Virus record (IMG/VR): IMGVR_UViG_3300013741_000060
Length of the DNA stretch: 4,823 nt
Direction: 5' to 3' (one strand)
DNA from: a virus
Lineage: Duplodnaviria > Heunggongvirae > Uroviricota > Caudoviricetes
The notes beneath the pieces were generated by a model that was not told the origin of the DNA, did no database searches, and worked only from the letters and a program-made list of their open reading frames with translations. Both the position numbers and the translations under genes were made by a program. This document shows, one piece after another, positions 1-4,823 of this stretch. The first letter of the stretch is position 1, and each line of letters opens with the position of its first letter.

Positions 1-591
1 GCCCGGACACTGACAAAATCCGTCAGGGGACGGGTTTCATCATCACAGACGGATGCTGCCACCTTATCCAGCAGAGGTTGTGATGCAGTGCCATTTCCGG
101 ACCGGGATAACACATAAAGAAAAACCCGGCCTTCCTGCGAATGCGTTTCCGGCCCGTAAGCCTTCACATCCAGCACATCAGGATCGGCACTTTGTGCAAA
201 ATAGTGGTACGCATTTTTCGCGCCGGCGGTGCTGAGCCGTGCCCATGACAACTGGATGCGTTCGCGAAAGGCGTCATCATCTTCATACACCGCCGGTGTG
301 GGCGGAATGGTGCTGTCGTCTGCCGGAGTAATGACCAGCCGCTGTACCTGATAATTNNNNNNNNNNAGCACGGACAGCATCATTTATCTGCTGGCGCATC
401 AACGCCACCCGAAAAGCCAGCGCCTCTGCCCATTTATACGCGGGATCAGATTCCACCAGAGCCGAAAACAACGTATCCAGCTCCTGATACTTCGCCACTA
501 TCTGAGTGACCAGCACAGCGGTATCCGGCATTTCCACCGCATCCGGTACCGGTATCGCGGACAGATCAATGATTGCCTGAGACGTTGCCAA
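1..591 (-). CDS. J: Baseplate assembly protein J (P2 gpJ-like), 5' portion; gene runs off the left edge of the window. Frame is broken by the N-run at 357-366; the true continuation is the frame with codon 356..354, not the tail of the listed 283..591 ORF.
   Basis: N-terminus (M)ATSQAIIDLSAIPVPDAVE...MRQQINDAVRA resembles P2 gpJ MPIIDLNQLPAPDVVE...RQRVNEAARA. My manual translation of the minus strand from 356 to 1 gives NYQVQRLVITPADDSTIPPTPAVYEDDDAFRERIQLSWARLSTAGAKNAYHYFAQSADP...YVLSRSGNGTASQPLLDKV...ETRPLTDFVSVR, which parallels P2 gpJ (NYNTTRLTITPADDSTIPPTPAV...AGSVGAYQYHGRSADG...SVLSRENNGVASEDLL...DVRPVADRVTVQ). Start is TTG at 591..589 with an in-frame TAA just upstream and AGGAG 7 nt upstream. 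Confidence 0.85.
357..366. other. Run of 10 N (masked or assembly gap) inside J
   Basis: Seen directly; the J reading frame differs by one position across it. Confidence 0.99.
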
Positions 592-922
592 TTTTTATCT
601 CCTCGAGTCGAATCGTGTCCTGAGTTTCGTTATTCACCCCGACAAGCGTCAGCCACGCGCTTCCTTCTCCTGTCCACGTCACTTCCACCCGCCGGAGAGT
701 CAGACGTGGTTCCCAGCGTTCAAGGGCAGTTACCGTTTCACGAACAATTCTCACCTGCGTGAAATCATCCTGTGGGTTATCAAGCAGACTGAAAAGTCTG
801 CTGCCGTACTCCCTGAGCAGGACCCGACTGCCGACCGGTGTTGACAAAATATCGGTGACGGACTGGCGCAGATGTTCGTTACCGTGCAGATATCTGCCGG
901 TTGCTGAATCAATACCAATCAT
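566..922 (-). CDS. W: Baseplate assembly protein W (P2 gpW-like, GPW/gp25 family), 118 aa
   Basis: Listed ORF 566..922. Motif ILSTPVGSRVLLREYGS matches P2 gpW ILRTPVGSRVMRRDYGS; size is about that of P2 gpW (~115 aa); lies between V and J as in P2. ATG at 922..920, stop TGA at 568..566. Confidence 0.85.
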   Translation of the reverse strand: MIGIDSATGRYLHGNEHLRQSVTDILSTPVGSRVLLREYGSRLFSLLDNPQDDFTQVRIVRETVTALERWEPRLTLRRVEVTWTGEGSAWLTLVGVNNETQDTIRLEEIKIGNVSGNH

Positions 923-955: not shown

Positions 956-1536
956 TTACATTTGCTGACCAGGCTGTCCGGTGCTGCCACCACTGTCGCC
1001 CCGGTGATTGTGACCGTTATAGACAATTCTGATTTGACTCATCGTTCCGAGATAATCAGAAACCTCACCACCGACCATCAGATCCGCCTTAACCACCGCC
1101 TCAGCATTCATGGTTGCTTTACCCTGTACGGTCAGGGTGTCAGTGACTTCTACCGGACCGTCCAGGGTTCCCCTGCCGGTAATTTTATAGCTACCGCCTT
1201 CAGCCAGCGTGATGGACAGGGCATTAGCCTGACGGTCGTAACGGATTTCCGTTCCGGTATCAAACAAAATAACATGTTCGTATTCACTGCCCTCAGGGAC
1301 AGGAATGGCGTCAATNNNNNNNNNNNNNNNNNNNNNNNNNNNNNNNNNNNNNNNNNNNNNNNNNNNNNNNNNNNNNNNNNNNNNNNNNNNNNNNNNNNNN
1401 NNNNNNNNNNNNNNNNNNNNNNNNNATCCACCCGAACCATCACCGGGCTACCCGGGATCACCTCGTCCACCACGCCGCGACGGACCATGTCCGCCACCCT
1501 GCGGCGTAACTCAGCCACTTCATCCGCCAGACTCAT
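956..1536 (-). CDS. V: Baseplate assembly protein V / baseplate spike (P2 gpV-like, Mu gp45-like); spans the 110-nt N-run 1316-1425
   Basis: N-terminal part MSLADEVAELRRRVADMVRRGVVDEVIPGSPVMVRVD (ATG 1536..1534, GGAGG 9 nt upstream) parallels P2 gpV MNTLANIQELARALRNMIRTGIIVETDLNAGRCRVQ. C-terminal part ...FDTGTEIRYDRQANALSITLAEGG...IVYNGHNHRGDSGGSTGQPGQQM parallels P2 gpV ...FPDGAVIEYEPETSALTVSG...HTHKHPGDSGGTTGSPL. Stop TAA at 958..956. The two halves are in different coordinate frames, so the N-run length is not exact. Confidence 0.8.
1316..1425. other. Run of 110 N (masked or assembly gap) inside V
   Basis: Seen directly; the V N-terminal and C-terminal halves are in different coordinate frames across it. 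Confidence 0.99.
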
Positions 1537-2083
1537 CACTGGTGCCCTCCGATTTCCAGATAAGACGATAATCCTGCTCATGTCTCTTGCCGGTTTCCGG
1601 TACTTTACCCAGCCAGACTTCCTGTAACGGCGCACCAGCCTGAACCGCAAACGGATCTTCGCCGACCGGAATGTCCTGTTCAAAAGAGACACGGAAAACG
1701 ATGTAGTCGTCCAGCTGCCGGTCGAAGGTATCCACCTCAGCATCGATAAAAACCGCCGGATCAACGTTATCCAGCCCGAACGTGGCTCCCTCAATCCAGT
1801 CAGATAAATCCATCGCCAGACAACGGGCAAAAATCTGCGGTTTTGGCACGTTTTCCGTCTTCCCGGCCCGGTCTGTCACCACAAACAGATCACATTTCAT
1901 CGTGACCCGCGTCTGCCCGTCGGCAAACTGAGCCTTGTCCCAGCCCGGTACATCCACAAACACAGCAGGCGTCACCAGTTGCGTCACTTTTTCCGGGTAC
2001 TCATCGGCATCTTCCACCCAGGGAATTTGTTTCAGACTGTCAATCACCGCCTGATGCCAGGCTCCCATCATCAATGGCTCCAT
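1520..2083 (-). CDS. Putative head-tail joining / tail terminator protein, weakly lambda gpU-like, with a ~50-aa C-terminal extension (187-188 aa)
   Basis: Listed ORF 1520..2086 (GTG 2086 or ATG 2083; AAGGGG upstream). Weak collinear resemblance to lambda gpU: AVIDSLKQ vs AVLDALEK, PAVFVDVPG vs PAVAVYLTG, DYIVFRVSFEQ vs LTYVITYEM. Position after FII and the Z-like gene matches lambda order. Start overlaps the Z-like stop (TGATG); stop overlaps the V start by 17 nt. Confidence 0.5.
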   Translation of the reverse strand: MEPLMMGAWHQAVIDSLKQIPWVEDADEYPEKVTQLVTPAVFVDVPGWDKAQFADGQTRVTMKCDLFVVTDRAGKTENVPKPQIFARCLAMDLSDWIEGATFGLDNVDPAVFIDAEVDTFDRQLDDYIVFRVSFEQDIPVGEDPFAVQAGAPLQEVWLGKVPETGKRHEQDYRLIWKSEGTSDESGG

Positions 2084-2805
2084 CACTCCAGCCCCTTAAA
2101 TACCCGGAATTTCAGTTCATGCTCAAAATTTTTCAGGATCAGTGCTTCCGCATCCGGAAAAACAAAATCCTCTATACGGTTCAGCATGGCTTCATAAATA
2201 TCAATTTCCGTTTCACGCACCCTCCGTCGTCCGGATGCCTGTCGGATCAGTATCGTTTTCCTTTTTGATATACGTCCGTTACGATTTTCCGCTTCGAACT
2301 GGTTGATAAAGGAATCATGCGTTGACCAGGTGGTGACAGGCAGGGATTCCCCGGCAGGTTTAAAACGGATCTCCCGTGCCTTCCTGAGGCGGGAAGCTGG
2401 TGCAAAACGCCCCCGCTCATCGCGCAACTGATGGCGTTCGCCGCGTCGTCCCCCACTGATGCGTCCGCGCAGATCGCGTACTTTGATGGCGTTCAGACCG
2501 AACCATACCTTCGCCTCATCAAACTCATCACCGTTACGACGAATGATAAAATTATGCAGAACACGCTTTTTGATCATTTTCTGACTGCGTGGGGCAACCT
2601 GTTTTTTAAACTCTGCCATAGCCTTCATCCGCAGTGCAGACGTGGCTCTTTTCAGCGCCACGCCCCAGGCTTTACGGATCTGACTTTTTGACCCACCCAG
2701 TTTAGCGATAATTTTCAGCACCTCATCTTCATCAATATCGACGACGAGGTTTCGTGCCAGCCGTCGTTGCCGGGCACTGCTTCGTTCATGCTCTCTGACT
2801 GCCAT
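2083..2805 (-). CDS. Putative tail completion / minor tail protein, lambda gpZ-like (~240 aa); start codon uncertain
   Basis: Listed ORF 2083..2907; the most plausible start is ATG 2805..2803 (MAVREHE...), overlapping the FII stop by 20 nt. Arg/Lys-rich protein with stretches resembling lambda gpZ (IIRRNGDEF..GLNAIKV vs IKVNRGDLPVIKLGNARVV; RISGGRRGER vs RRRRRKKGQR). Sits immediately after FII as in lambda. A P2 gpR/gpS-type tail completion protein cannot be excluded without HMM searches. Confidence 0.5.
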   Translation of the reverse strand: MAVREHERSSARQRRLARNLVVDIDEDEVLKIIAKLGGSKSQIRKAWGVALKRATSALRMKAMAEFKKQVAPRSQKMIKKRVLHNFIIRRNGDEFDEAKVWFGLNAIKVRDLRGRISGGRRGERHQLRDERGRFAPASRLRKAREIRFKPAGESLPVTTWSTHDSFINQFEAENRNGRISKRKTILIRQASGRRRVRETEIDIYEAMLNRIEDFVFPDAEALILKNFEHELKFRVFKGLE

Positions 2806-3187
2806 AACGTTTACTCGGTCGTTCCGGTGCAGCAGGTGTATTTCTCCCCGGCTCTCCACGTGCAAGGGTGATGGTAATCCCCCCCTGACCCGCAGTGCCT
2901 GACTCATCCCAGCCGGGATCGACTACCTGATAGGGTTCGCCGTGGATCATGACCCTGTCATATTTTTTCAGACCGGCGGCCCATGCGCTCCGGGTAAATA
3001 ACACGGGCGCAGTATCACGAATTTCGCCGCTGCCAGTGTTTATCCCGGTGTTATCTGCCGGGGCATCAAAAACGGCACGGATTTTTCTTTCCGTGCCGCC
3101 CGGATATATGCTGATTTCCGTCCCCATCGTATCCAGGATGATGTCATCCGCATCGCTCATGGCCTGATCGAACAGATTATCGAACAT
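2786..3187 (-). CDS. FII: Head-tail joining protein FII-like (lambda gpFII family)
   Basis: MFDNLFDQAMSDADDIILDTMGTEISIYPGG...IRAVFDAPADN...PVLFTRS parallels lambda gpFII MADFDNLFDAAIARADETIRGYMGTSATITSGE...IRGVFDDPEN...PSLFVRT. ATG at 3187..3185 with GGGAG upstream (the listed ORF begins 2 codons earlier at GTG 3193). Stop TGA at 2788..2786. About 16 aa longer at the C-terminus than lambda FII. Confidence 0.8.
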   Translation of the reverse strand: MFDNLFDQAMSDADDIILDTMGTEISIYPGGTERKIRAVFDAPADNTGINTGSGEIRDTAPVLFTRSAWAAGLKKYDRVMIHGEPYQVVDPGWDESGTAGQGGITITLARGEPGRNTPAAPERPSKRYGSQRA

Positions 3188-3189
3188 CC

Positions 3190-3555
3190 TCACTCCCGGA
3201 TTTTTTCTGCCAGACCGTCCGCCAGCAACGCAGGAACTGCGGCTTCATTAACCAGCACAACACTGGAGGCCCGGGCAAACATCAACATTTTTCCCGTCAC
3301 AGCATCACAGGCTGGCATATGCGCCGTTTTCAGCATACGCACCCGGGCGAGTCCCCGCTCAGAATGCATTCCGTCGCCGGATGCATCGTTGCCCACATCT
3401 TCCTTCCCTGTCTCCTCCCCATCAAATCCGGCGGCCTCCTCTTCCCATTCCGCCAGGCGCTGCTCAAGATCGGCTTTTGAACCTGAAATATCTGCTTCAC
3501 GCCCCAGAATCACTGCCAGTTCCTGCAAACGTTCAGTCATCTGCTCTTTTGTCAT
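3190..3555 (-). CDS. FI: Head assembly / DNA-packaging protein FI-like (lambda gpFI family)
   Basis: MTKEQMTERLQELAVILGREADISGSKADLEQRLAEWEEE parallels lambda gpFI MTKDELIARLRSLGEQLNRDVSLTGTKEELALRVAELKEE, followed by an acidic Gly-rich linker and a C-terminal domain as in gpFI. ATG 3555..3553 with GGGAGAG 7 nt upstream (listed ORF starts one codon earlier at GTG 3558). Stop TGA at 3192..3190, 2 nt before the FII ATG. Confidence 0.75.
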   Translation of the reverse strand: MTKEQMTERLQELAVILGREADISGSKADLEQRLAEWEEEAAGFDGEETGKEDVGNDASGDGMHSERGLARVRMLKTAHMPACDAVTGKMLMFARASSVVLVNEAAVPALLADGLAEKIRE

Positions 3556-3573
3556 CACATCTCTCCCGTGCGC

Positions 3574-3600
3574 TAAAGAAAAAGGCGGAATATCCCGCCC
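3574..3600 (-). terminator. Candidate rho-independent (probably partial) terminator directly downstream of the major capsid gene
   Basis: Minus-strand RNA 5'-GGCGGGAUAUUCCGCC-UUUUUCUUUA-3': a 5-6 bp GC-rich stem (GGCGG/CCGCC) with a 4-6 nt loop followed by a U-tract, starting 5 nt after the E stop codon and ending just before the FI ribosome-binding site. Confidence 0.4.
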
Positions 3601-3604
3601 CGTC

Positions 3605-4629
3605 TTATTTCACCTGAACCACCACAAACGCATCCGGATCCGGCAGCACCATCAACGGCGCAGACTGCGTCATGGTATATTCGCAACCAGGATCCCCCAC
3701 TTCCTCCCAGTGTTTCGGATAACGAATCGCAGAGGTGATCCCTTCACTCAGTGCCTGATTATCCTGAATGGCTCCATAACAACGGACGCCTTCCGCCTGA
3801 GTGTTCCCCAGAATCAGTGTACCTTCCGGCAGATAACGCTGTTCATCCCCGTTTTCGTCAACATACGTTGTCTTCGCCACCACAATTGCCAGATCGCCGT
3901 AATGGCCTTTAAAGGAAACCACGGNNNNNNNNNNCCCAGGTCTTTCAGTGCCGTTTCCAGCTCAGATTTGGAGCCACGGCGGGTATCCAGTTTTTCACGG
4001 AACAGTTTAAAACCGTTCAGCATACGCCAGACCGTGCCGTCCATAATCGCGATATTGATGGTGCCGGAAGCGAAATCGCTGTACGCATCCAGATCATGCG
4101 TCGGATCGAAGGTGTCAGCATTCTGCTGTGACCATTCGCGTCCGCCAGCCTGCGTAATGTTATTGGCGGCAGAACGCCCAAAATCCACTTCCACCGTCTC
4201 AAACTGCTCGCCGCTCATGGTGTATTTACCCTGCAGAACGGCACTGACCGCCTGCATTTCTTCCACCTGCACAATCGCCTGCTCTTCCTGTTTCAGGTTG
4301 TCCGTCAGAATACGCAGACGGCGGTAAGCCGGGTCATTAAGGCGAGCCGGATCTTCTCCCGGAAGACGTTCCACTGCNNNNNNNNNNNNNNNNNNNNNNN
4401 NNNNNNNNNNNNNNNNNNNNGTTTCACCACCACGGCTGCGCAGCACTTTGCCTGACACCACCGGAGACACATACGCCGCAACCGGTGTTTTGCCGGTAAT
4501 TTTATCCAGCATGACTTCCTGCGTATGGAAAGTGATCGTGCGACGAAAGAACAGCTCCAGAAACAGCGCACGAAAATTCACTTTCTGCTCGGTGTACCCG
4601 AGTAACTGACGCGTGGTAAATAACCCCAT
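3605..4629 (-). CDS. E: Major capsid protein (lambda gpE family); interrupted by N-runs 4378-4420 and 3925-3934, so listed ORFs 3814..4629 and 3605..3922 are two pieces of one gene
   Basis: MGLFTTRQLLGYTEQKVNFRALFLELFF...YVSPVVSGKVLRSRGGE...PGEDPARLNDPAYRRLRI...QVEEMQAVSAVLQGKYTMSGEQFETVEVDFGRS..NNITQAGGREWS...KLDTRRGSKSELETALKDL and ...KGHYGDLAIVVA...LGNTQAEGVRCYGAIQD...RYPKHWEEVGDPGCEYTMTQSAPLMVLPDPDAFVVVQVK are collinear with lambda gpE along its length. ATG 4629..4627 with AAGGA 9 nt upstream; stop TAA 3607..3605. The frame changes across the 10-N run. Confidence 0.92.
3925..3934. other. Run of 10 N (masked or assembly gap) inside E
   Basis: Seen directly; the E frame changes across it. 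Confidence 0.99.
4378..4420. other. Run of 43 N (masked or assembly gap) inside E
   Basis: Seen directly; E stays in the same coordinate frame across it. Confidence 0.99.
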
Positions 4630-4697: not shown

Positions 4698-4823
4698 TCA
4701 GACGTGGCTGATGGCACTTCCCACAAATGCGTTGGCTTTTTTCACCGCATCCACAGAGTCAGGCCAGACCAGCGACTCAGTGGCAAACGTACCGCTTTTG
4801 TAGTACGTCAGCGTGGGTTCTGT
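4698..4823 (-). CDS. D: Head decoration protein (lambda gpD family), C-terminal 41 codons plus stop; start lies beyond the right edge
   Basis: My translation of the minus strand from 4823 gives TEPTLTYYKSGTFATESLVWPDSVDAVKKANAFVGSAISHV*, which parallels the lambda gpD C-terminus [39 protein letters not shown]. Stop TGA at 4700..4698. Confidence 0.85.
   Translation of the reverse strand, partial: TEPTLTYYKSGTFATESLVWPDSVDAVKKANAFVGSAISHV

Follow-up and report, generated by a model that had tools for sequence, protein, structure and literature searches.

The 4,823-nt stretch of viral DNA analyzed here (hereafter, the window) comes, in our estimation (probability about 0.88), from the middle of a late (virion) operon belonging to a temperate myophage or prophage of E. 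coli, and this operon joins a lambda-family head and head-completion module to a contractile tail module of the P2/R-pyocin class. In line with an earlier note on this sequence, which placed lambda-type head and head-completion genes directly before a P2-type baseplate, profile searches, searches against the sequences of solved structures and gene order agree on this arrangement. The arrangement itself is ordinary and already known: it was first described about 25 years ago, and published accounts of lambda/P2 chimeras go back to the first papers on Wolbachia phage WO. Many E. coli genomes also contain annotated prophages with ~98% identity to the window, which thus carries little weight as a discovery. 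Two genes labeled 'hypothetical' can nevertheless be named, one as a tail-completion protein of the Z family and the other as a tail terminator ('collar') related to PA0615 of R2 pyocin.

Gene content of the window

Every gene called in the window lies on the minus strand (Table 1), and Pfam, PHROGs and PDB sequence matches together give an identity to each, with the qualifications set out below for the two middle ORFs. Plus-strand ORFs were rejected as genes, each lying inside a minus-strand gene with a strong family match. Four runs of N (357-366, 1316-1425, 3925-3934 and 4378-4420) stand where there was longer genuine sequence; they mask part of each of the E, V and J genes and disrupt their reading frames, but apart from these runs all structural ORFs are intact. 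Scans of the window for Rfam RNA families and for sigma-70-like promoters returned none; a putative terminator hairpin sits in the 46-nt gap between E and FI.

Table 1. Features of the window, listed in the direction of transcription.
Feature	Coordinates	Strand	Evidence
Head decoration gene, lambda D type (3' end, clipped by window edge)	4698..4823	-	Pfam HDPD 6.4e-9
Major capsid protein gene, lambda E type	3605..4629	-	Pfam Phage_cap_E 3.6e-32 and 1.7e-20, in two pieces
Putative terminator-like G+C hairpin followed by T run	3582..3601	-	8-pair stem with 5 G-C pairs (terminator scan)
DNA-packaging protein FI gene	3190..3558	-	Pfam Packaging_FI 1.4e-13; phrog_92 3e-32
Head-tail attachment (head closure Hc1) gene, lambda FII type	2786..3187	-	Pfam Phage_attach 8.4e-13; phrog_82 9e-30
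240-aa tail-completion/Neck1 gene, Z-like	2083..2805	-	phrog_27 ('tail completion or Neck1') 6.9e-28
183-187-aa tail terminator ('collar') gene, P2/R-pyocin-type tail	1520..2083	-	phrog_1072 1.6e-50; fold match
Baseplate central spike gene, P2 gpV type	956..1536	-	PDB 3qr8 (P2 gpV) 3e-11; 4s37 5e-8; phrog_9992 7e-23
Baseplate wedge gene, P2 gpW/T4 gp25 type	566..922	-	Pfam GPW_gp25 4.7e-15; phrog_43 6e-39
Baseplate wedge gene, P2 gpJ type (5' part, clipped by window edge)	1..591	-	Baseplate_J 6e-22 (homologue in STEC409 prophage)

The D and E homologues are adjacent and in that order, as in a lambda-type head module, and FI and FII come after E, again as in lambda. In the near-identical prophage of E. 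coli STEC409 described below, the full-length D homologue shares 60% identity with lambda D and matches phrog_49 ('head decoration'), and the E homologue shares 59% identity with lambda E over 341 aa; in the window, the E gene is interrupted by the two rightmost N runs, which shift its apparent frame. FI shares 40% identity with lambda FI over the N-terminal 40 aa (BLASTP 4e-5), and FII shares 33% with lambda FII (BLASTP E 1.5e-10). The lambda order and likeness claimed earlier are thus borne out by sequence for D, E, FI and FII; for the two ORFs that follow, called Z-like and U-like, neither BLASTP nor hhalign demonstrates such likeness.

The start of the 240-aa ORF overlaps the end of FII by 20 nt. 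Its product aligns to positions 4-194 of the 199 of the phrog_27 profile, the same PHROG that lambda Z matches at 3e-69, and a phrog_27 gene also lies between Hc1 (FII) and the terminator in phages WO, Valp1 and yong2. On the basis of one PHROG profile, the ORF can be regarded as the positional and profile-level counterpart of lambda Z, and the designation Z-like holds in this sense, while pairwise similarity to lambda Z was detected neither by BLASTP (E 4.3) nor by hhalign (probability 1.8%). The ORF had no match in Pfam, nor among PDB sequences with single-sequence and profile queries. Its AF2 model is poor (pLDDT 64), and Foldseek with this low-confidence model gave no fold match. The PGAP label of the gene in the STEC409 prophage is 'hypothetical protein'.

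The next ORF has two candidate starts, ATG at 2083 or at 2071. PGAP picks the latter, but the former, which overlaps the TGA of the preceding gene, is the likely start because homologues begin MxxPxL. The ORF (183-aa ORF below) has no match in Pfam, phrog_1072 is listed by PHROGs as 'unknown function', and PGAP calls the gene a 'hypothetical protein'. A profile of the family nonetheless matches the R2 pyocin collar PA0615 (6u5f) at E 6e-4, and with a confident AF2 model (mean pLDDT 84) Foldseek retrieved the R2 collar (6e-8), the Mu terminator (3e-7), T5 p142 (2e-4) and lambda gpU (4e-4). By sequence, the ORF does not fall in the lambda gpU family: lambda U belongs to phrog_37, BLASTP found no similarity between the two, and the hhalign probability was 0.7%. 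Likewise, the family had no BLASTP or hhalign match to P2 gpR, nor did P2 gpR match PA0615 by sequence. Judged by its predicted fold, the 183-aa protein is a tail terminator whose nearest solved relative is the R2-pyocin collar PA0615 (about 20% identity) rather than lambda U or P2 gpR. The label U-like is therefore apt for the terminator fold, but there is no lambda-derived sequence signal behind it. By analogy with the structures of R2 pyocin and P2 (P2 preprint), the protein would form a hexameric ring capping the tube and gripping the last sheath layer. An exhaustive search for representative homologues, which carries no gene context, gave 387 clusters at E ≤ 1e-3, and word-index searches returned enterobacterial relatives only.

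HMM and PDB sequence searches of each protein confirm the assignment of V, W and J to the baseplate, as had been proposed, and no sheath or tube gene is present in the window between the head-tail joining genes and the baseplate. The match of gpV to 3qr8 spans residues 6-203, its full length, and identity to P2 V is 26%, also over the full length; the gene is split by the N run at 1316-1425, and Pfam Phage_base_V and Apex score under the curated cut-off. Identity of gpW to P2 W is 39%. The gpJ gene shares 26 nt with the gpW gene and contains the N run at 357-366; its homologue in the STEC409 prophage shares 41% identity with P2 J and matches PA0618 (PDB 6u5b) at 4e-57. Exactly as described earlier, the collar gene (TGA at 1522..1520) and V (ATG at 1536) overlap by 17 nt, and a GGAGG motif (1550..1546) lies 9 nt ahead of the V start.

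Near-identical prophages and wider relatives

The Stx2e prophage adjoining dusA in E. coli STEC409 (NZ_CP041422.1; locus L001) shares 97.9% nucleotide identity with the window over 97% of its length, with the same gene set and order and point changes only. Its flanks hold the terminase, portal and protease genes upstream and the sheath, tube and tape measure genes downstream. Upstream, the series is lambda-type Nu1, A, W, B, C, D, E, FI and FII, with identities to lambda of 64% (A), 49% (W), 62% (B), 54% (C) and 33% (FII) besides those given above for D and E, and of 46% over the C-terminal half for Nu1. Downstream follow I, H, G, sheath, tube, E, tape measure, U, X and D. Identity to P2 is 36% for I and G, 37% for the sheath, 22% for the tube, 33% for U, 51% for X and 38% for D, the last at 2e-29 although Pfam Phage_GPD remains under the cut-off. 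Sheath and tube, both located outside the window, match Pfam Phage_sheath_1/1C and Phage_tube as well as PA0622 (1e-52) and PA0623 (9e-14); other Pfam matches are Tail_P2_I (4e-35), Phage_P2_GpU (3e-27) and Phage_tail_X (1e-19). The prophage carries no lambda V/G/T/H/J tail set, and BLASTP of its proteins revealed no lambda-type tube, tape-measure or tip genes. A myovirus-type tail on a lambda-type capsid, as suggested before, is what this gene content implies.

At least 80% of the window is present in 75 complete E. coli genomes, at 96-98% identity. When the whole window was compared with 50,697 phage records by megablast, no match was returned; the close relatives are prophages and not deposited phages, and the Stx2e phage P27 is not a near relative of the window's module. 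A contig scan, the yield of which was restricted by its peptide pattern to 14 enterobacterial loci, was followed by tblastn: ORF240, ORF183 and V were matched in that order in all 14, and FII in eight of them. Because of this confinement, taxonomic breadth was taken from tblastn against phage records.

The quartet of FII (phrog_82/7787), phrog_27, phrog_1072 and gpV is kept in WOcauB1, Valp1 and yong2. Wolbachia phage WO (WOcauB1 and others) has a lambda-like terminase, portal, C and E-type capsid, followed by FII-like, phrog_27 and phrog_1072 genes and then P2-like gpV, W and J, all as here, and it shares the collar/V start-stop overlap. It differs in the sequence of its collar protein (28-31% identity), an extra small gene between V and W, an alphaproteobacterial endosymbiont host and a eukaryotic-association module. 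WO has been called a lambda/P2 chimera, together with Xylella XfP1 and XfP2 (PMC3235987). The isolated phages Valp1 (Vibrio) and yong2 (Hafnia) carry the same FII/Z-like/collar/V block and a P2-type tail. Valp1 also has a lambda D/E-type head but differs in being a telomere phage (protelomerase). In yong2, a ClpP-capsid fusion and a cement protein replace C/D/E, and W-J-I-H are placed after gpD, not after V. In Citrobacter phage Chris1, the collar homologue alone was seen (48% identity); across Valp1, yong2 and Chris1, collar identity is 35-52%. The genes imply that the prophage tail, too, would be contractile, by analogy with Valp1, the one relative with electron microscopy, which shares the gene order and is a myovirus whose contractile tail measures 90 nm (PMC11054321).

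Position of the seam and proposed assembly

The earlier note set the head/tail junction at the overlap of the U-like gene with V and read the overlap as a sign of an old, co-adapted join. We place the junction further upstream. Since the 183-aa ORF is the collar of a P2/R-pyocin-type tail, the collar/V overlap falls within the tail module, and the seam lies upstream of this ORF rather than at the V start; most probably, judging from sequence comparisons, it lies between FII and the Z-like gene. FII shares 45% identity with its counterpart in a Serratia prophage with a lambda D/E-type head (L009) versus 28-34%, where detectable, in yong2-type prophages, the capsid of which is the ClpP-capsid fusion, while similarity to the two is about equal for the Z-like protein (36-41%), the collar (42-52%) and V (46-55%). 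This placement draws on a modest identity contrast in a single protein, FII, which is not cleanly assignable to either module because both head types keep the lambda-family terminase, portal and FII. That the join is old follows from finding the FII/Z-like/collar/V quartet conserved in phages as far apart as those of Wolbachia and E. coli. The overlap, on the other hand, is no evidence of age, as FII/ORF240, ORF240/ORF183 and W/J overlap likewise.

A reading closer to that of the earlier note is that lambda supplied the Z-like and U-like genes as head-tail joining genes and that the seam lies exactly at the overlap with V. The order FII-Z-U is indeed that of lambda, the Z-like ORF shares phrog_27 with lambda Z, and the 183-aa ORF has a gpU/terminator fold. 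However, by sequence the family of this ORF matches the R2-pyocin collar and neither lambda U nor P2 gpR; the pyocin cassette, devoid of head genes, opens by locus-tag numbering with the collar directly before the V homologue; and collar-V adjacency is kept even in yong2-type genomes, where W-J-I have moved away. We therefore consider a lambda origin of the two genes quite improbable. Slightly less improbable, yet still unlikely, is that the module comes from a prophage that has become defective, or from a tailocin-like element that has been domesticated, its head/tail combination being a relic that yields no infectious phage. The STEC409 copy holds a frameshifted methyltransferase and a truncated hypothetical gene, and many Stx2e prophages vary in the morphogenesis region (PMC8705337). 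Against decay stand the intact structural ORFs, the conservation of the module across the E. coli genomes mentioned above, the complete set from terminase to gpD in STEC409, and relatives of the same design that are isolated, plaque-forming or inducible phages. As for a chance adjacency of two elements, in which a lambda-like remnant happens to lie beside the remains of a P2-like prophage or tailocin, a cassette of the collar-V-W-J kind can exist without head genes, as R-type pyocins demonstrate, but the idea is effectively refuted. From FI to V the genes are tightly packed or overlap on a single strand, and neither an integrase nor an att site or regulatory gap separates them; the STEC409 prophage has a single copy each of integrase, lysis cassette and terminase; and isolated phages with complete genomes of 39.5 and 43 kb show the same gene order.

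For the joined operon, which we retain as the preferred reading, the identities, order, context and conservation of the genes are the observations, and an assembly order and protein-protein contacts can be modeled on the established lambda and P2/pyocin pathways. Heads would be built and filled in lambda style by the Nu1/A terminase aided by FI, with the B portal, C protease, E shell and D cement, and would then be closed by W and FII. Tails would be made separately in the manner of P2 and R-pyocins, with the V spike, W/J/I wedges, D hub, U and the X glue in the baseplate and with tube and sheath polymerizing around the tape measure. The tail would be finished by its own two proximal-end proteins, the Z-like protein (240 aa) and the hexameric terminator or collar (183 aa), of which the latter, a PA0615 homologue, would cap the tube and anchor the last sheath ring. 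Head and tail would finally join via FII and the collar, a contact we infer by analogy with lambda FII-gpU and the P2 adaptor-gpR contact (P2 preprint). If assembly proceeds in this way, the seam would match the division between the pathways that assemble head and tail. Because the terminator comes with the tail and has to dock on an FII of lambda type, the lineage is a convenient natural system for asking what sets head-tail compatibility.

Comparison with lambda, P2 and R2 pyocin

Compared with lambda, the genes from Nu1 to FII stand in the same order at 33-64% identity and a Z-family gene follows FII, but in lambda the genes beyond this point are U, V, G, T, H, M, L, K, I and J and specify a non-contractile tail. 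P2 (Peduoviridae) has homologous V, W, J, I, H, G, sheath, tube, U, X and D (22-51% identity), with V-W-J-I-H-G ahead of sheath and tube. It differs in having its own head genes Q, P, O, N, M and L, in the position of X (in the head/lysis operon of P2, between U and D here), and in gpR (phrog_65) followed by gpS (phrog_26), that is, with the terminator before the completion protein. BLASTP of the STEC409 prophage proteins found no match to P2 Q, P, O, N, M, L, R or S, and gpR and gpS have no detectable sequence similarity to the two middle ORFs. With a lambda-type head and a phrog_1072 rather than a phrog_65 terminator, the element would, on these sequence assignments, not be classed as a true P2-like member of the Peduoviridae.

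In R2 pyocin of P. aeruginosa, PA0615, PA0618, PA0622, PA0623 and PA0627 are matched by the collar, J/Tri1a, sheath, tube and glue X, and the spike also matches 4s37. The matched locus tags ascend in the order of the genes here (collar, V, J, sheath, tube, X) within the R-pyocin structural cassette PA0615-PA0628 (PMC11871291). R2 pyocin differs in having no head, portal, FII or Z-like genes, and it packages no DNA. We tentatively raise the possibility, itself rather doubtful, that phrog_1072 is the collar/terminator common to R-type pyocins and the lambda-head/P2-tail lineage and that R-type pyocins descend from that chimeric lineage. If so, they arose by losing everything upstream of the collar gene, and their ancestor was not P2-like (Peduoviridae), contrary to the usual statement.

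If the element of the window carries stx2e like its closest relative, a contractile tail and two fibre genes would bear on the host range of toxin transduction. A literature search on Stx2e phages with a tail sheath and lambda found no paper, but Stx2e phages have already been grouped as 'myovirus-like' (PMC8136144).

Lambda-type head and P2-type baseplate genes

All real genes of the window are located on the minus strand. Comparison with a 98%-identical prophage revealed that three of the four runs of N are shorter than the sequence they replace (runs of 10, 110 and 43 N stand in for 48, 153 and 55 nt, respectively). As a result, the J, V and E frames are artificially broken, and E is seen as two apparent ORFs in the window.

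Coordinates of genes and other features in the window
Feature	Coordinates	Strand
Lambda-D-type decoration gene, last 41 codons	4823..4698	minus
Lambda-E-type major capsid gene	4629..3605	minus
FI	3558..3190	minus
FII	3187..2786	minus
240-aa ORF	2805..2083	minus
183-187-aa ORF	2083 or 2071..1520	minus
P2-type gpV	1536..956	minus
gpW	922..566	minus
gpJ, first two thirds	591..1	minus
Hairpin and T-rich run 3' of D stop	about 4685-4650	minus
Hairpin and T-rich run 3' of E stop	3601-3582	minus
TGATG region at 240-aa/183-aa ORFs	2071-2086	minus
N runs, four	357-366, 1316-1425, 3925-3934, 4378-4420	

Pfam matches were obtained for D (HDPD, 6e-9), E (Phage_cap_E, 4e-32 and 2e-20), FI (1e-13), FII (Phage_attach, 8e-13) and W (GPW_gp25, 5e-15), while J was confirmed via its full-length homologues (Baseplate_J, 6e-22). 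V stayed under the Pfam cut-offs and was identified by comparison with sequences of solved structures, matching P2 gpV over its full length (3qr8, 3e-11) as well as a second baseplate spike chain (4s37, 5e-8). In BLASTP searches against the proteins of the GenBank records, identity to lambda amounts to 60% for D, 59% for E, 40% for FI (N-terminal 40 aa only) and 33% for FII, and identity to P2 to 26% for V, 39% for W and 41% for J. The same searches against lambda and P2 proteins yielded no match anywhere to P2 head genes or lambda tail genes. Lambda-type head genes followed by P2-type V, W and J, as the earlier note had proposed, are thus borne out by Pfam, PDB-sequence and BLASTP matches, and the overall reading of a lambda-type head with a P2-type baseplate is supported, with two corrections.

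Two proteins match PHROG 2353 (labeled 'major head protein', 481 positions), namely the capsid protein over positions 1-314 and FI over positions 361-481 (20196-21637 in L001, the prophage of E. coli STEC409). Some members of this family in databases seem to have been annotated as E-FI fusions or as read-throughs.

G+C-rich hairpins with T-rich runs are found directly 3' of the D and E stops, where genes are otherwise tightly packed. Of this pair, only the post-E hairpin passed a terminator scan. Both may act as partial terminators or stabilize the mRNA, setting a high ratio of D and E to minor-protein expression.

Identity of the two genes between FII and gpV

The 240-aa ORF has no Pfam match. 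It does match phrog_27 ("tail completion or Neck1 protein") over almost the whole profile (7e-28), a family also matched by lambda Z (3e-69), while direct comparison with lambda Z gave no match (BLASTP E 4.3; hhalign probability 1.8%). An AF2 model of low quality (pLDDT 64) gave no structural neighbor. We therefore assign the protein to the Z family at profile level only. Mutants of lambda Z yield particles that look normal yet are not infectious.

The 183-aa ORF, annotated by PGAP as a hypothetical protein, belongs to phrog_1072, which carries the PHROGs label "unknown function". Its family profile matches one solved protein, the R2 pyocin collar PA0615 (6u5f/6u5j, E 6e-4), in a region that takes in a conserved C-terminal P-x-x-G-x-x-H-x-x-D-Y stretch. 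In the collar, the conserved residues of the C-terminal arm read P-E-x-G-R-x-H-x-D-D-Y-R-L-I. The best Foldseek matches of its AF2 model (mean pLDDT 84) are the R2 collar (6e-8), the phage Mu terminator (3e-7), the T5 p142 terminator, lambda gpU (4e-4) and T4 gp15, and these matches identify the protein as a tail terminator that resembles U in both fold and role. In sequence, the protein groups with the pyocin collar and not with lambda U (phrog_37) or P2 gpR (phrog_65). P2 gpR has been described as a tail terminator that bridges adaptor and sheath, and was compared with PA0615 (recent P2 cryo-EM preprint). The lambda-like sequence that the earlier note had ascribed to both ORFs therefore holds only in part: a Z-family profile and a U-like fold and role stand, whereas neither protein directly matches lambda Z or U in sequence. 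Functional names for these two "hypothetical" genes are modestly new.

In the PGAP annotation, the 183-aa gene begins at the equivalent of the ATG at window position 2071. Homologues start with M-x-x-P-x-L, which fits the ATG at 2083, so the true start probably lies 12 nt upstream of the annotated one. The A of the ATG at 2083 is also the last base of the preceding gene's TGA (TGATG), a predicted further translational-coupling overlap. Downstream, the collar stop (1522-1520) and the V ATG at 1536 give a 17-nt overlap, with GGAGG 9 nt 5' of the ATG; the overlap and the GGAGG site agree exactly with the earlier note. That overlap had also been taken as a sign of an old join. However, FII and the 240-aa ORF (20 nt), W and J (26 nt) and, if ATG 2083 is used, the 240-aa and 183-aa ORFs (1 nt) overlap too, so the collar/V overlap is not special and does not speak to age.

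Age and position of the head-tail join

The collar protein was compared with phage records by tblastn. Its gene directly precedes gpV in the phages yong2 of Hafnia (52%), Chris1 of Citrobacter and Valp1 of Vibrio (35%), in one Burkholderia phage, in four E. coli vB_EcoM isolates and in fourteen records of Wolbachia WO (27-31%). The order FII-family, phrog_27, phrog_1072, gpV recurs in WOcauB1, Valp1 and yong2, with start-to-stop overlaps of 8-14 nt between collar and V. Valp1 is a myovirus whose contractile tail measures 90 nm (PMC11054321). The block of 240-aa ORF, 183-aa ORF and V was also detected by tblastn in fourteen enterobacterial prophage loci, eight of which have a detectable FII match. 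Because this order is kept in such distant phages and prophages, the join is ancient; the old age suggested earlier is thus upheld by a block conserved from Wolbachia WO to enterobacteria.

Around this block, gene content varies. In most of the enterobacterial relatives among yong2 and the fourteen prophage loci, the order is V, sheath, tube, E, T, U, X, D, W, J, I, H, with collar and V kept together. Phage yong2 carries a ClpP-capsid fusion and a Phage_cement_2 protein in place of lambda C, D and E, and the other yong2-type loci gave no D or E match. Judged from these comparisons, capsid genes and tail gene order are both shuffled around a constant core of FII, Z-like, collar and V genes.

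The earlier note had placed the junction at the U-like/V overlap. The collar-V pair is kept in yong2-type genomes, where W-J-I-H sit at the end of the tail operon; these genomes have a different capsid and the same lambda-family terminase, portal and FII. FII identity follows head type, being 45% to a Serratia prophage with a lambda D/E head and, wherever FII could be matched, 28-34% to the yong2 type. By comparison, the two head groups hardly differ in their similarity to the Z-like protein (36-41%), the collar (42-52%) and V (46-55%). With moderate confidence, we place the module boundary between FII and the Z-like gene. Lambda FII is part of the head, and lambda Z and U are part of the tail; the boundary placed here would coincide with that between the head and tail assembly pathways.

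Matches to R2 pyocin PDB entries have locus tags that rise in the gene order found here: collar PA0615, Tri1a/J PA0618, sheath PA0622, tube PA0623 and glue/X PA0627. The pyocin structural cassette, PA0615-PA0628, is without head genes. Other tail proteins are about equally distant in sequence from P2 and pyocin. Collar and cassette order suggest that the lineage is tied to R-type pyocins more closely than P2 is, in those two respects only, a link that is modestly new.

Virions would be assembled from lambda-style heads closed by W and FII, and P2/pyocin-style tails built on a V/W/J/I/D/U/X baseplate. A collar hexamer would cap these tails, and the Z-like protein would complete them. Joining would occur through contact between FII and the collar.

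The STEC409 prophage and known chimeras

The window is present at a coverage of at least 80% in 75 of 5,426 complete E. coli genomes, and STEC409 and an ETEC17xx strain are examples of lysogens with this prophage; one of 220 matching places is on a plasmid record instead of a chromosome. It is 97.9% identical to a prophage of E. coli STEC409, which adjoins dusA and carries one integrase, lambdoid early and late regulation genes, stx2e and a lysis cassette. The virion genes are ordered Nu1, A, W, B, C(S49), D, E, FI, FII, two ORFs, V, W, J, I, H, G, sheath, tube, E, a 550-aa tape measure, U, X, D, a second fiber gene and a DUF4376 gene. Of the tail genes, I, sheath, tube, U and X were confirmed by Pfam and PDB sequence matches, and D by BLASTP against P2 D (38%, 2e-29), its Pfam Phage_GPD match being under the cut-off. 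A lambda-type tail set in the flanks would have spoken against the P2-type reading; since this relative has no lambda-type tube, tape-measure and tip set, that reading stands.

This architecture has precedents. A passage in PMC3235987 presents WO phages, following Masui and colleagues, as chimeras of lambda-like packaging and head and P2-like baseplate genes, and cites Xylella XfP1 and XfP2 as further lambda/P2 chimeras. Stx2e phages form the "myovirus-like" cluster C of an Stx phage survey (PMC8136144), and reviews mention rare Stx phages among the Myoviridae (PMC8065619). Given this literature, both the architecture and this very sequence are already known, and the feature represents an unremarkable type of mosaic prophage that has been described before.

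Stx2e conversion is a trait of the STEC409 prophage, the closest relative of the window; its stxA2/stxB2 genes (e subtype group) are preceded by tRNA-Ile, tRNA-Arg and tRNA-Arg, these features together occupying L001 8062-9302 and 7719-7970. After gpD, L001 33506-36072 holds the second tail-fiber gene, whose 667-aa product shares 47% identity with part of P2 H, and the DUF4376 gene. Together with the H/G pair after gpI, this gives the prophage two fiber sets, which may bear on host range.
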